Source of the DNA: Escherichia coli
GTDB taxonomy: Bacteria > Pseudomonadota > Gammaproteobacteria > Enterobacterales > Enterobacteriaceae
DNA: 64,000 bases
NCBI RefSeq assembly: GCF_022846255.1
Contig: NZ_AP025682.1
Reading direction: 5' to 3' (one strand)
The first letter of the stretch is position 1; each line of letters opens with the position of its first letter. A program made the translations under genes and the position numbers. This document shows positions 3,626 through 63,554 of this stretch, piece by piece. The notes under the pieces are model-generated. The model saw only the letters and a list, made by a program, of their open reading frames with translations. It had not been told where the DNA came from and ran no database searches.

Positions 3626-3798
3626 GCCTGATGCGACGCTGGCGCATCTTATCAGGCCTGGGCTGGAGTAGCCCCGTAGGTCGGATAAGGCGTTTACGCC
3701 GCATCCGACAGTCGTTGCCTGATGCGACACTGGCGTGTCTTATCAGGCCTACGCTGGAGCAGCCCCGCGCCGCATCCGACACGCATTGCACGATGCCG
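3626..3798. repeat. BIME cluster of about 4 REP (repetitive extragenic palindrome) units
   Basis: Alternating copies of GCCTGATGCGACGCTGGCGCATCTTATCAGGCC and GTAGGTCGGATAAGGCGTTTACGCCGCATCCGACA between dedD and cvpA. Confidence 0.9.
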
Positions 3799-34489: not shown

Positions 34490-34541
34490 CCGAATTTCGA
34501 TTAACGCTCAGTCTCTGACTGAGAAAACTGGAAGCATGCTA

Positions 34542-55527: not shown

Positions 55528-55636
55528 TTAACCCTCCGTTTCACTTCTCATTTCTGCCATTCCATTGCCGTTGATAAAGAGTTTATCTGTTAATCTGTAA
55601 ATTGATGTGAAAACTCTTAGCAAACAGGATAATGCA

Positions 55637-55903
55637 ATGGAATGGCTGGTCAAAAAATCGTGCTGCAATAAACAAGATAACAGACATGTAATTATGCTCT
55701 GCGATGCTGGCGGCGCGATAAAAATGATCGCCGAAGTGAAGAGTGACTTCGCCGTGAAAGTGGGGGATTTACTCTCGCCTTTGCAGAATGCGCTTTACTG
55801 TATTAATCGTGAAAAGCTGCACACGGTGAAAGTCCTTTCTGCAAGCTGTTATAGCCCCGATGAGTGGGAACGGCAGTGTAAAGCGGCAGGGAAAACTCAG
55901 TAA
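55637..55903 (+). CDS. pmrD: Signal transduction protein PmrD
   Basis: ORF 55607..55903; start set at ATG giving [13 protein letters not shown]..., 88 aa. Confidence 0.92.
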
Positions 55904-56283
55904 CGTTGTTTTGTTGTGGGCAGGAAAATCAGCATCAACCCGCTCATAATACAGGCTACTCCCAGTAGTGCTTTCAGCGAAAAAGTCCCTTCCCAGCCGG
56001 GAAGTACCATTGAAGCAATCCATACCAGCACATAACTCATACTGAGCAAGGCATAGGCTTTGCTTAGTGCAAGTTTATGTAGTGTTTTATACCAACAAAA
56101 AACGGAAAGCAGATAACCCAGCAGCCCGAGTAACAGTATCCGGGCATCCAGGCCAAAAGCTAACAACGCCGCGATAAAATCCCATAAGTGCGTCATCGGC
56201 GGCAGATGACTCGCCGCAAAACCCAGGCTTAATTGCGCAGCGGAGGCGATAATGACGCTGAATAATCCCCACATCAGGCCCAT
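55897..56283 (-). CDS. arnF: Undecaprenyl-phosphate-L-Ara4N flippase subunit ArnF
   Basis: ORF 55897..56565; start set at ATG giving [10 protein letters not shown]..., 128 aa. Confidence 0.93.
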
Positions 56284-56618
56284 TACACGGTACTCCCGAG
56301 GATCACAATGCCACCAATAATGAACGCCACCCCACACCAGTGACGCGGCGATACCGGTTCGTGCCACAGTTTTACTGCAGCCAGCGTCACCCAGACAAAA
56401 TTCAGACTTAACATCGGGTAGGCAATGCCTACCGGTACGTTCTGCAAGACCAGCAGCCAGAGCACCATGGCAAGACCAAGACAAGCCAGCGCCAGTCCCA
56501 GCCACAGCACGATATGTTTGCGCCGTTTGTTTATCGCCACAAAGCAGGTTGCCTGTTTCTGACACAACTGCCCGGCAACGCTAAGCAAGCTGGCAAAGAC
56601 TAATGTTAGCCAGATCAT
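56283..56618 (-). CDS. arnE: Undecaprenyl-phosphate-L-Ara4N flippase subunit ArnE
   Basis: 111-aa membrane ORF; overlaps arnF and arnT. Confidence 0.93.
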
Positions 56619-58267
56619 TTGGGACGATACTGAATCAGCACCAGACGCTCCTGACGATCGATGGCATCTGCGGGCGGAATGGCGAGACTGTTGATATCTT
56701 CATTGCGGTCAACCGAAAGCACGAGTGTAATAATCCCCTCCTGACGATGTTGATTAAGCCAGTTTGCGAACTCATCACCGCTGACAAATCTCCCTTTCGC
56801 ATCCGGATAATTAAGGCCGTATTTCAACTCACCTGTCTGGCGATACATGATGATGTCATCGCGTTGCAGGCTCCATGCCAGACCTGCGGCAACACCGACG
56901 CTATCAGTAAGAATATAGCGGCTTGGCTGAAGTGATTCTTGTGTCATCTCGACAAAAAATTGCGGATGTTTTCCTTCCATGACTCTGTCAGGAATTGAAA
57001 ATCCTACCAGCAACGCCAGCCCCAGCGGGCAAAGCGCGGCAAAAGACCAGGTCTTTTCGACGTTTGTTAAGGTGTACCAGCCGAAAAATGCCCATAGCGA
57101 AAAAATCGACCAGGCACAAAAGACTTTATAGCTCTCGAAGGTTTGCCACACCGGCGTGTTCATTGCTCCCCAGGGGGAGACCACAAATGTGGCAATAATG
57201 CCAGTGACGCCAAAAGCGATGTTAATCCAGCCATTAATCCGCAACGCCAGAGGATTATTTTTTGCTGCCAGCAAAGCGTAATGCGCCATCAGCATTGCCA
57301 GAGGAGCAAAGCAAGAAAGAATATAGGTGGGCAATTTGCCTTTGGCGACGGAGAAAAACAACAGCGGCATTATCGTCCAGCTCAACAAATAGACGGTTGC
57401 GGAATGCTTGCGGTTTTTCCAGCCTGCGTACAGTGCTCCGGGGAGTAATCCCAGCCACGGCAGGCTACCGGCAATGATGACCGGCAAGTAGTACCAGAAC
57501 GGAGCTCTATGCTGAGCATCATCCATTGCAAAGCGTTGAATATGCTCAACCCAGAAAAAATAGTGCCAGAAGTCAGGCTCCCGCTGCGCTATCGCCAGTC
57601 CCCAGGGGAGAACCGTCAGTACGCAACTGATGACCGCCAGCCAGCCGTAAATAAAGAGATCTTTCCAGCGTTTTTGCGTTGTAACCCATGGAAGCACGCT
57701 TAATACCGGCACGGCAAGGGCGAGAAAACCTTTGGTCATCACCCCCATGCCGCAGGTGATTCCCAGCAGTAAAAATCCTGCGCTTTTGCCTTTCCACGTC
57801 TGTGCCTGCATTGCCAGCCAGAAGCTGCACATTCCCGCCACCAGCCAGAAGGCAATAAACGGATCGAGCACGGCATAAGTGCCGATGGCATAGACAATGA
57901 ACAATGAGAGGTAAATCACTGCGGCGAGTAATGCCAGACGTTTATCGCGCCATAAGCGCAGAGTAAACCAGGTCACCAGCGCGGCAGTTAACAGGGTCGC
58001 AAAGATAACGCCTGCCCGCACACCAAAGTTATTCGCGCCAAATAGCCATTGCCCAATGCTGTTAATCCAGTATCCGGCAATGGGTTTTTCGAAATAACGT
58101 AGTCCTAACAGATGGGGAACAATCCAGTCGCCGGATGCCAGCATTTCCCGACTGATTTCCGCATAACGCGTTTCATCGGGTTGCCAGAGCAGACGCGTGC
58201 TGATCGGTAACAGGTAATAGCAGGCAATAAATGCGAAGAGGCCGATAAGGTAACGTACCGATTTCAT
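56615..58267 (-). CDS. arnT: Undecaprenyl-phosphate-L-Ara4N:lipid A transferase
   Basis: 550-aa polytopic glycosyltransferase. Confidence 0.96.
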
Positions 58268-59157
58268 CAGTGACTACCCGCAATTTGTTGGCAACCCAGC
58301 CAGCCTTCACGTCCGGCAATATTTCCGCGAACAACTTGTCCGAGCGGCAACGTCCCTGATAACAGTTCGCTTAAAGGGCAAAATGTCACGCCTTCCTGAG
58401 CTGCGCGTTTCAGGAGATCCACAAAATTATGCTGATAAGCGCAGCCTTCAACTTCGGCATGAATGGTATAAACCGGCGTGCCTTTATCTCGCTGGATGCG
58501 GTTGAGTAACCAACCGTTAAAATCTTCTGCTTTCACATCCCGACCAATCACTTCATCCCAGGTGGGTAAGGTCACCGGAATTTGCGCAGTGCCAGGGGTT
58601 CCTGATTCGAGCAATGGACGAAACGGCATCGCCCCACGACAATCGCTGTTGTAGCGCAAATGGAACGCTTCTTTTGCTTCGATCACCTGTTGGTCAGCAC
58701 GCCAGCCAGCAGCGGCAGAACAGGTTACCGGTTGACCGATAATCTCTTCCAGGGTGCGAAGGCCGCGTGCAATATCGTCGATCATTGTTTGCCGATCCCA
58801 ATTACCGCTATGGGCTTGCCAGGCATGGTGATCCCAGGCGTGCAGGCCGACTTCGTGATGTTTAGCCGCTTCACGAATGATATCGGCATTGGCATGACCA
58901 ATCTCTTTACCTGGCCAGGCCGTACCTGCCAGTAAAATATCCCAGCCATAAAGCGATGCCGCGTTTGAGCGCAGCATCTTCCACAAAAACTGTGGCTTCA
59001 CCAGTCGCCAGAGATGGCGGCCCATATTGTCCGGGCCGACGCTGAAAAAAATGCTGGCCTGAATATTATGCTTACTCAAGATTTCCAGCAGACGCGGCAC
59101 GCCTTCACGGGTGCCACGAAAGGTATCGACATCAATGCGTAAGCCGACTTTGGTCAT
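58267..59157 (-). CDS. arnD: 4-deoxy-4-formamido-L-arabinose-phosphoundecaprenol deformylase
   Basis: 296-aa ORF recognised as ArnD. Confidence 0.96.
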
Positions 59158-61135
59158 GATGGTTTATCCGTAAGATCAACGGTGCGCAGGAAGAAATCCA
59201 GCGTTTCGTCGATGGTTTCCTGCATATCAATTTTCGGTTCCCAGTCCAGGCAGCGGCGGGCATTGCGGATGCTCGGTTTACGATGCTCTACGTCCTGATA
59301 TCCTTTGCCGTAGTAGCTGCTACTTTCGACAACACGAAAGCCCGCAAACGGTGGGAAGTAATGGCGCAGCGGATGTTTTTCGAAGCTCGCCAGCAGCATC
59401 TCCCCCAGTTCTTCAATGCTCGCTTCGTTCTCAGGATTGCCAATGTTGATAATTTCGCCATCGCAGCGATTTCCCGCATTTTCGATAATGCGGTACAACG
59501 CCTCGATACCATCCCGGATATCAGTAAAGCAGCGTTTTTGTTTTCCGCCATCAATCAGCTTAATCGGTGAACCTTCTACCAGATTGAGAATGAGTTGCGT
59601 AATAGCGCGGGAGCTGCCAATTCGCGCTGCATTAAGGTTATCCAGTCGTGGCCCCATCCAGTTAAACGGGCGGAAGAGGGTGAACTGTAAACCTTCTTTT
59701 TCGCCATAGGCCCAGATCACCCGATCAAGTAATTGTTTAGACACCGAATAAATCCAGCGTGGTTTATTCACCGGGCCGACGATTAAATTAGAATGATCCT
59801 CATCGAAGTATTTATCGCTACACATCCCATAAACTTCTGAAGTCGACGGGAAGATGATTCGCTTACGGTACTTCACGCAGTAGCGGATAATGCGCAGATT
59901 CTCTTCGAAATCGAGTTCAAATACGCGCAGCGGGTTGCGGGTATATTCAATCGGCGTGGCTATCGCCACCAGCGGCAACACGACATCACATTTTTTGACG
60001 TGATACTCAATCCATTCGGAATGAATACTGATATCGCCTTCGACAAAGTGAAAATGCGGATGATTCAGAAAACGGCTTATCGCATCGCTGCCGATATCCA
60101 GACCGTAAACTTCATAATGATCTTCGCGCAGCAGGCGTTCTGTCAGATGGTTGCCAATAAAGCCATTCACCCCGAGGATGAGTACCCGCGTACGGCGTCG
60201 GGCGGTGCAGGCAGGCTGGCTATTCAAGCGTGAACCTTGCACCAGGCCCAGCGTCTGCGCCAATTGCGAGCCCTGCATAGTAATGCCGTCGCCCGCCTGT
60301 CCGGTGACGATTTCCAGCGCGCCATCGCCACAGGCAATCAGCAGCGGCGCAACAGAAATCACGCTCCCCGGCTGTGCTTTGCTGGCATGAGGATGAACAC
60401 GCGACGACCAGACGGTAAATTTCTGATTACCAACATAGCTGAAGGCACCCGGCCACGGATCGGCAACGGCACGCACCATGTTGTGCAGCATAGATGCCGG
60501 TTTATGCCATTCGAGGAAACTGTCATCCGGCGTTCTGCGACCAAAACAGGTGGCTTCGTTTTCGCGCTGGGCGATTTCCAGAATATTACCGTGTTTAATG
60601 GCGGGTAATGTCTGTTCCAGTAGCTGGCGCGCGGCATGACATAACTTATGATGCAGCGTAATGGCGATATCGTCTGGCGCAATGGCAATGCGCAGTTGCG
60701 CCACAATGGCCCCGGCATCGGCACGTTTCACCATTCGGTGCAATGTAACGCCAGTTTCCGTTTCACCGTTCACCAGCACCCAGTTCAGCGGCGCGCGACC
60801 ACGATATTTGGGTAACAGCGAACCATGCAGATTAAATGCACCTGCGGGAGCGAGCTGCAAAATTTCGTCGCAAATAAGATGGCGATAATAAAAAGAAAAA
60901 ATCACATCAGGTGATAGTTGGGCAATGCGTTCCACCCACAGCGGATGATTAACGTTATCTGGCGCATAAACCGGAATGCCTCTTTCCGCCGCCAGACGAG
61001 CTACCGAACCATAAAAGGCTTTTTCACCGGGATTATCAGTATGAGTAAAAATAGCGCTAATTTCGTAACCGGCATCCAGCAGGGCTTCAATACCGAGGCA
61101 TCCCATATCGTGGTAGGCAAAAACGACGGTTTTCA

Positions 61136-61136
<1 letters not shown>
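59154..61136 (-). CDS. arnA: Bifunctional UDP-GlcA decarboxylase / UDP-Ara4N formyltransferase
   Basis: 660 aa; N-terminal formyltransferase, C-terminal SDR decarboxylase. Confidence 0.97.
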
Positions 61137-62107
<971 letters not shown>

Positions 62108-63247
62108 TTATTGTCCTGCGAGTTGCTGAAGGGCTGTGATGACGCGGTCGGCATCGGCGGTAGTCATATCCGGGAACAGCGGCAACGAACAGATGCGTTC
62201 GCTATTCCATTCGGTATTCGGTAACGACAGCGTGGGAAAACGCTCGCGATAATATTTTTGTGTGTGAGCGGCGCGGAAATGTAACCCGGTACCAATACCT
62301 CTTTCTTTTAACGCTTCCATCAACGCATCGCGACTGATACCACAACGTTGTTCATCGACACGAATAATAAACAGATGCCAGGCGTGAACGTGCGGCCAGG
62401 CGGGAAGGCTTAATGGCTGAAAAGGGAGAGCTGCCAGTGCTTGTTGATATTGCAGAGCAATTTCGCGCCGACGGGTGTTGAGGTGCTCTAATTTGGCTAA
62501 CTGGGTCAGGGCAATCGCGGCGTTAATATCGGTCAGATTATACTTATAGCCCGGCGTTAAGACTTCAGCTTGCGGTGCACGGCCCCAGGTTTGTCTGTCA
62601 TAGGCATCGACACCCAGACCGTGAAATTTTAGCATCCGTAGCTGGCGGGCAAGGTTTTCATTATCTGTAACAATCAGGCCACCTTCCGCACAGGTAATAT
62701 TTTTGATGGCGTGAAACGAAAAAATAGCGGTACCTTTTGCACCAATATGTCGCCCTTTGTAATACGTACCGACGGCATGGGCAGCATCTTCGATAACTGC
62801 GATGCCGTAACGTTCGCCAATGGCGCGAATGGCGTCAATATCTGCTGGCGCACCGGCATAATGCACCGGAATGATGGCTTTAGTGCGTGGCGTAATGGCT
62901 GCTTCGATCGTTTCAGGAGTGACCATCAGCGTATCGCGGTCGACATCCACCATTACCGGCGTTGCACCCAACAAGGAGATCATATTGAGGGTTGAAACCC
63001 AGGTCAGGGAAGGCGTAATCACTTCATCGCCCTTGCCAATTTCCAACGCCATTAGCGTGATATGCATTCCGGCGGTGGCTGAACTGACCGCGATGGCATG
63101 CTGATTTCCCGTCAACTGGCAAAAGGCTTGTTCAAGCGCGTGATTCTTCGGACCGGTTGTGATCCAACCGGATTCGAGAACCTCTTTAACTGCAGCGAGT
63201 TCCTCCACGCCCATTGCTGGTCGCGAAAAAGGCAAAAATTCTGACAT
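62108..63247 (-). CDS. arnB: UDP-4-amino-4-deoxy-L-arabinose-oxoglutarate aminotransferase
   Basis: ORF 62108..63280; start set at ATG giving [10 protein letters not shown]... (379 aa) with SD GGAAGGA upstream; 63280 possible. Confidence 0.95.
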
Positions 63248-63346
63248 TGCTTTTCCTTCCGCCATTGAATACCTGTCCACTTATATTTGCTATAAAGAGT
63301 GTTGTGTATATTTTGCCATTTGGAGCAAAATTTTAAGGATAGAATA

Positions 63347-63363
63347 TTAACTTAACCTTAAGA
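63347..63363 (-). promoter_or_regulatory. Candidate PmrA(BasR) box in arnB promoter
   Basis: Minus strand CTTAAG-GTTAA-GTTAAT (two YTTAAK half-sites, 5-bp spacer) about 100 bp upstream of arnB ATG. Confidence 0.55.
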
Positions 63364-63554
63364 AACTAATATTAGACGTAAATATTGAAATTTTTATATT
63401 TTTTCTTATTTAGGCTTTGCATTTGGCAAAATTTTGAGGCATTTTGCCGGCATCGCAGGATTTTTAATATTACACCAACTGCTAATTATCGCCAGAAATG
63501 TCGCTCAATTTCACGGTAATTGTCTGGTTGCGCTTGTCTATAGGTGGAGTTTAC

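Follow-up and report, generated by a model that had tools for sequence, protein, structure and literature searches.

One PmrA/BasR box as the probable shared operator of the divergent arnB and ais promoters of Escherichia coli

Gene content of the arn-ais locus

The window analyzed here, a 64,000-nucleotide stretch of Escherichia coli DNA, ends in the arn-ais region, a long-known PmrA/BasR-controlled system. In Enterobacteriaceae, chromosomal polymyxin and colistin resistance arises mainly through the arn operon, whose control by BasR/PmrA is textbook material. Gene names were transferred from a 100% identical E. coli record (strain 7/2, offset 53699), whose annotation gives the order menC, menE, pmrD (+), arnF/E/T/D/A/C/B (-), ais (+) (Table 1). 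All seven arn genes (B, C, A, D, T, E and F) lie in a single operon between pmrD and ais, as in an arn/pmrHFIJKLM lipid A Ara4N locus. The original prediction described pmrD, arnFETDACB and ais as a BasRS/PmrAB-controlled Ara4N cluster, which agrees with the annotation of the identical record, the open reading frames and published genetics. To call the cluster full was an overstatement: pmrD, arn and ais are present, but ugd lies ~266 kb away in K-12 and eptA-basRS is located elsewhere. The arnB-ais intergenic region spans exactly 63248..63554 and is 67% A+T, versus 48% for the whole window. A match to the surrounding 401 nt (63200..63600) was found in 5417 of 5426 complete E. coli genomes.

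The 3' ends of pmrD and arnF are convergent and overlap by 7 bp (55897-55903). The arnB ATG has been annotated in two ways, at 63247 (379 aa, strain 7/2) and at 63265 (385 aa, K-12 NP_416756.6). Alignment of ArnB orthologues from 80 species begins at residue 1 of the 379-aa form (residues 1-379), and the arnB transcription start at 63321 fits either codon. Rfam matches above the gathering threshold were naRNA4 at 3679-3749 (+, 80.3 bits) and the nuoG cis-regulatory RNA at 34492-34534 (+, 50.3 bits). Rfam returned nothing in 63000..64000 at E <= 1, and the 64-kb window contains no tRNA genes.

Table 1. Genes and control elements of the pmrD-arn-ais region, in window coordinates.
Feature	Position	Strand	Details
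pmrD	55637..55903	+	88 aa connector protein; annotation and sequence
arnBCADTEF operon	55897..63247	-	annotation and ORFs
arnF	55897-56283	-	
arnE	56283-56618	-	
arnT	56615-58267	-	
arnD	58267-59157	-	
arnA	59154-61136	-	
arnC	61136-62104	-	
arnB	62108-63247	-	
arnB transcription start	63321	-	K-12 2365854, Cappable-seq
arnB -10 hexamer	63330..63335	-	TAAAAT; -14..-9; 10 nt downstream of box
PmrA/BasR box (supported)	63346..63362	-	CTTAAGGTTAAGTTAAT; reads CTTAAG-GTTAA-GTTAAT; -41..-25 of arnB promoter; -106..-90 of ais promoter, centre -98
Box half-site 1	63362..63357	-	CTTAAG
Box half-site 2	63351..63346	-	GTTAAT
Box-to-ais -35 spacer	63363..63416	+	54 nt, 83% A+T
T-tract inside spacer			ATATTTTTTCT; -56..-46 of ais promoter
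ais core promoter	63417..63445	+	-35 TTGCAT 63417-63422; 17-nt spacer; -10 CATTTT 63440-63445
ais transcription start	63452	+	K-12 2365723, Cappable-seq; 103-nt 5' UTR
ais ribosome-binding site	63543-63549	+	GGTGGAG
ais start codon	63555	+	GTG
ais	63555..64000	+	pmrG homologue, heptose(II)-phosphate phosphatase; gene cut by window end

The PmrA/BasR box and the two promoters

Verified Salmonella PmrA boxes consist of CTTAAG and NTTAAT with five base pairs between them (PMC3973317). The CTTAAG-N5-GTTAAT repeat originally predicted upstream of arnB is real and has the arnB orientation, but it lies at 63346..63362 and not at 63347..63363, one base from where it had been placed. The form CTTAAG-N5-NTTAAT has one exact match in the 64-kb window versus 0.02 expected; when one mismatch is allowed, the loose form YTTAAK-N5-YTTAAK shows no enrichment there (5 matches versus 3.0 expected). 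Together with 10 nt on each side, the box forms a 37-mer that 5374 of 5426 E. coli genomes carry unchanged and 24 others carry with one mismatch; the lack of conservation in other E. coli that had been named as telling against the motif is therefore not observed. The box was also kept in 20/20 related loci examined, all Escherichia, Salmonella and Citrobacter loci among them, and it is conserved, always 10 nt from a -10 hexamer, across Escherichia, Salmonella, Citrobacter, Intestinirhabdus and Phytobacter. Judged by sequence, the direct repeat, promoter position and conservation among orthologues would all place the site in the PmrA/BasR operator class, and assignment of 63346..63362 as a bona fide, arnB-oriented PmrA/BasR box is supported. 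Both the TTAA core and the CTTAAG half-site are palindromes, which leaves box orientation weakly defined in the sequence.

Transcription starts were taken from the primary sites of re-analyzed Cappable-seq data for K-12 MG1655 (Table 1 of PMC12987492), a single dataset with antibiotic rather than Fe3+ induction and a basR+ background only. They were placed on the window by alignment with the corresponding region of NC_000913.3, which showed no gaps and 14 substitutions, none of them in promoter elements. The starts of ugd (2099734, -), arnB (2365854, +) and ais (2365723, -) appear in all three antibiotic treatments and are absent from the control (PMC12987492). This comparison with mapped promoters, which had been suggested as a check, positions the arnB start at 63321 (-) and the ais start at 63452 (+), 131 bp apart. 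The arnB start lies 9 nt downstream of TAAAAT, which supports the earlier designation of this sequence as a -10-like hexamer below the box. TAnnnT exactly 10 nt past the box in the arnB direction was present in all 12 loci counted (background frequency 0.037), and arn-only loci also carry the box-N10-TAnnnT module. In the arnB promoter, the box stands in for the -35 element, a layout of the PhoB/pho-box type. Expression of arnB-lacZ is up 31- to 72-fold in a basS A20D mutant, and basR G53V activates similarly (PMC8151780).

A scan of both the arnB-ais and menE-pmrD intergenic regions for PmrA and PhoP boxes, also suggested at the outset, yielded a single PmrA box and no convincing PhoP box. 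The arnB promoter has no PhoP box of the form (T/G)GTTTA-N5-(T/G)GTTTA; the sole match, with 3 mismatches, is at 63537..63553 over the ais ribosome-binding site, and at 3 mismatches the 64-kb window holds 160 matches versus 117 expected. The promoter is not of the PhoP-direct (Yersinia/Klebsiella) type. E. coli, Shigella and Salmonella are reported to be without an arn PhoP box, the direct PhoP branch having been lost (PMC2565834). Between menE and pmrD, no PmrA box occurs at up to 3 mismatches, and the only PhoP-like matches are weak ones, each with 3 mismatches, at 55569..55585 and 55610..55626. The best of these upstream of pmrD, CGTTGATAAAGAGTTTA (55569-55585), is not significant alone.

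Sequences upstream of ais were aligned for eight species and then for a widened set of fourteen loci. Besides the box, one conserved island was evident, TTGCnT...TTTnAGGCATTTT at 63417..63445; outside the box, no other part of the intergenic alignment has invariant columns in runs as long. This block occurs in 13 of the 14 loci (one variant) and is missing from arnB-bearing Citrobacter loci that lack ais, a distribution that fits an ais-specific promoter. An ais start at ~63452 was predicted from the conserved block alone, and the Cappable-seq start maps exactly there. The ais discriminator is G+C-rich (GCCGGC, GCGCAC) in most species aligned. Literature phrase searches, from which the primary Salmonella and E. 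coli promoter papers were out of reach, returned no match for the pmrG or ais promoter.

Several other candidate elements in the region were rejected. An ais promoter right beside the box, with a -10-like hexamer 18-21 nt past CTTAAG, disagrees with the mapped start at 63452; a TAnnnT at this offset is absent from E. coli and seen in only 6 of 12 loci. Sigma-54 and sigma-32 readings of the conserved ais block were rejected by eye, as the GG/GC dinucleotides vary and the sigma-32 CCCC is missing. A perfect 8-bp inverted repeat, GGCAAAAT/ATTTTGCC (63425-32/63441-48), flanks the ais -10 hexamer. As an ais-leader RNA hairpin it was discarded, being upstream of the start and kept only in Escherichia and C. 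amalonaticus, and it is probably a chance occurrence in A+T-rich DNA. The same probably applies to a 14-nt direct repeat, GCAAAATTTTAAGG / GCAAAATTTTGAGG (63325-63338 / 63426-63439), which overlaps the arnB -10 and the ais promoter spacer and whose first copy shows no conservation across other Escherichia species. Small upstream ORFs (27 codons in Salmonella, 7 codons in E. coli) are not conserved.

One box and two divergent genes

The original prediction reported no convincing second PmrA box for ais, and this holds: no other site with two or fewer mismatches occurs in 63248..63554, where the sole 17-mer within that limit is the same site on the plus strand, ATTAACTTAACCTTAAG. Nor is there a PmrA box at 63413..63429, the position that would match arnB geometry for ais. 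The accompanying expectation, that co-regulation of ais requires a box of its own in the ais orientation, is not supported. Genes reported as PmrA-activated in E. coli are pbgP, pmrC and pmrG, the last corresponding to ais (PMC3140997). Moreover, the same box stays upstream of ais in genomes without an adjacent arn operon. A full box is found in this setting in Intestinirhabdus alba (CTTAAGGATAATTTAAT; pmrD then ais), in C. rodentium (CTTAAGGTTATATTAAT; menE then ais) and in a C. freundii-like genome (CTTAAGATTAAATTAAG; menE then ais).

The distance from box to ais -35 falls into discrete classes. Among 12 loci the spacer measures 54 nt (7 loci), 44 nt (4 loci) or 33 nt (1 locus), in steps of 10 and 11 nt, and the box centre is at -98 from the ais start in E. 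coli, -88 in Salmonella and -77 in Escherichia sp. E1V33. In sequence, the spacer is as divergent as the leader (mean pairwise identity 0.59 versus 0.55), whose length as 5' UTR ranges from 67 to 108 nt. C. tructae departs from the spacing series by 3 nt. The spacer lengths, an argument from two or three independent indel events (roughly p = 0.04), suggest that the box may be coupled to the ais promoter on one face of the helix. Because the box is kept in arn-less genomes, the spacer is phased and the starts are co-induced, a single box appears to serve both the arn operon and ais, with a second site unneeded.

Three natural configurations of the locus exist: arn with ais, arn only, and ais only. 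In five loci of the Citrobacter freundii complex, the stretch from arnB to nudI lacks both ais and the ais core promoter, and box-N10-TAAYCT of arnB is intact. Citrobacter amalonaticus has a ~200-bp insertion between the arnB promoter and the arnB ATG (2285-2490 of locus L005) that places the box at -327 instead of about -115 from the ATG and leaves box-to-ais spacing unchanged. The insert is an intergenic repeat that is dispersed through E. coli genomes (27,316 places; median 5 per genome) and resembles ERIC/IRU. In C. tructae, ais is divergent from a PMT-family gene (ArnT-like, PF02366) and not from arnB; the box is kept, and the ais -10 region reads GGCGCATTTT.

Collectively, we consider it likely that BasR (PmrA) controls the divergent arnB-ais region through one operator, 63346..63362, which feeds both promoters. 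In the published structure, activated PmrA binds two hexamers as a head-to-tail dimer (PMC4660055), and phosphorylated BasR would occupy both hexamers of the box in this manner. At arnB, the dimer would sit in place of a -35 element, 10 nt above TAAAAT, and promote initiation at 63321 by PhoB/pho-box type activation. Contact with sigma region 4 may be involved, as modeled in a PhoB-based docking of RNA polymerase on PmrA-DNA whose authors call the sigma-4 contact unproven (PMC4660055). At ais, the same bound dimer may be the input, positioned one or more whole helical turns from the promoter. It would most likely act through an upstream contact dependent on the face of the helix, perhaps via the alpha C-terminal domain over the A+T-rich spacer. 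With its centre at -98, the box would act on ais from an unusually long distance for one dimer of the OmpR family.

A remote contact of this kind would not predict that arn-less genomes keep the leftward module. In I. alba, C. rodentium and the C. freundii-like genome, all three among the 12 loci counted, near-consensus hexamers (TAGAAT, TAATAT and TATATT) lie 10 nt past the box, facing away from ais, and the 10-nt spacers between box and hexamer are entirely different in sequence. The chance of all three genomes retaining TAnnnT is ~5e-5. The predicted leftward transcripts of these three genomes share no conserved ORF. Within about 70-100 nt, towards the menE/pmrD 3' end, the leftward path meets hairpin-forming sequence that, read by eye, may terminate the convergent gene, menE or pmrD. 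In these genomes the leftward promoter may serve a purpose of its own, for instance by yielding a short PmrA-dependent RNA, or the induction of ais may require it, for instance through supercoiling from divergent transcription. We raise, tentatively, a broader scheme in which one BasR dimer site works in two modes, as -35 replacement at arnB and from a remote, phase-locked position (-77/-88/-98) at ais, and in which the leftward promoter is additionally under selection in arn-less genomes. If this were true, ais induction would mechanically need divergent transcription, or an unannotated leftward PmrA-dependent short RNA would exist.

The same leftward promoters favor an unlikely but live alternative, in which BasR acts directly on the leftward promoter only and the negative supercoiling of divergent transcription induces ais secondarily. 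An ais promoter whose -10 hexamer (CATTTT) is poor and whose discriminator (GCCGGC) is G+C-rich would suit this scheme, as would the recurrence of G+C-rich discriminators in most ais orthologues, the short distance between the two starts, and the retention of box-N10-TAnnnT in three genomes with nothing obvious leftward to transcribe. Spacer lengths in whole helical turns are not predicted by supercoiling, however, and the leftward transcripts of arn-less genomes could serve some function of their own. Decidedly improbable is that the box is irrelevant to ais and that the gene is run by an element of its own in TTTnAGGCATTTT/TTGCnT (63416..63445), whether a non-canonical BasR half-site or the target of another regulator. 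The invariance of the block exceeds what a weak -35/-10 pair would demand, and in most species the block includes TTTAAG, which fits a YTTAAK half-site; lower-affinity PmrA half-boxes have also been reported in the K. pneumoniae pbgP promoter (PMC2565834). In E. coli, however, the half-site reads TTTGAG and a partner half-site is missing. Furthermore, the block is exactly -35..-7 of the mapped start, so a core-promoter role explains much of its conservation, and an independent element would not account for the complete box that accompanies ais, at fixed and phased spacing, in arn-less genomes.

A motif that arose by chance in A+T-rich DNA and has no regulatory role merits hardly any credence. 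The composition of the intergenic region and the lack of enrichment of the loose consensus would allow it, but the exact published form occurs once where a small fraction of a match is expected, is near-invariant in E. coli and is kept across genera at a fixed offset from a -10 hexamer, with a mapped start where one is expected. Conservation and start geometry effectively refute a chance origin.

With one BasR site feeding both promoters as the favored reading, the gains are a start-anchored map of the two promoters and an account of ais that has no need of a box of its own. Phased spacing and the arn-less genomes hint at how one response-regulator site drives two divergent promoters of different architecture. 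Only mildly new, and perhaps partly described already, are the ais promoter architecture anchored to starts, the phasing of the spacer and the persistence of the leftward module in arn-less genomes.

Comparison with known systems

The pbgP(pmrH)-pmrG box of Salmonella enterica has an orthologous position and orientation and reads CTTAATGTTAATTTAAT, N10, TAGGGT. Both pbgP and pmrG are members of the Salmonella PmrA regulon (PMC1525208), and the pmrG promoter carries the same core block, TTGCTT...TTTAAGGCATTTT, as ais. The two species differ by three box bases, in spacer length (44 versus 54 nt) and in box centre (-88 versus -98). Among 80 loci found through ArnB, ais is beside arnB only in Escherichia and some Citrobacter; separately fetched Salmonella loci also show this arrangement. 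Box1 of Klebsiella pneumoniae pbgP (CTTAAT-N5-CCTAAG; 4S04/4S05) likewise consists of tandem hexamers 5 bp apart (PMC3973317) and, like the E. coli box, lies over the -35 region of a PmrA-dependent promoter and is bound head-to-tail (PMC4660055). Klebsiella pbgP differs in having a PhoP box and a second, PhoP-dependent promoter (PMC2565834).

The pho box of PhoB is similarly built, with tandem direct repeats that replace the -35 element ~10 bp above the -10 and bind a head-to-tail dimer of the OmpR/PhoB family. It differs in half-site sequence, PmrA sites having a TTAA core, and sigma-4 contact is unproven for PmrA (PMC4660055). The ugd promoter of E. coli K-12 has the same module as arnB, CTTAATATTAACTTAAT-N10-TATTCT, with a Cappable-seq start 7 nt past the hexamer under the same conditions. 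In contrast to the arnB-ais region, ugd is one gene transcribed in one direction, and its two half-sites are perfect YTTAAK matches. As ugd shares this geometry, box-N10-TAnnnT is common to two BasR targets.

In class I activation, CRP works from -61.5, -72.5, -82.5 or -92.5 in a manner dependent on the helical face. By analogy, ais box centres at -77, -88 and -98, which step by one helical turn, may reflect a comparable constraint, although the activator belongs to a different family.
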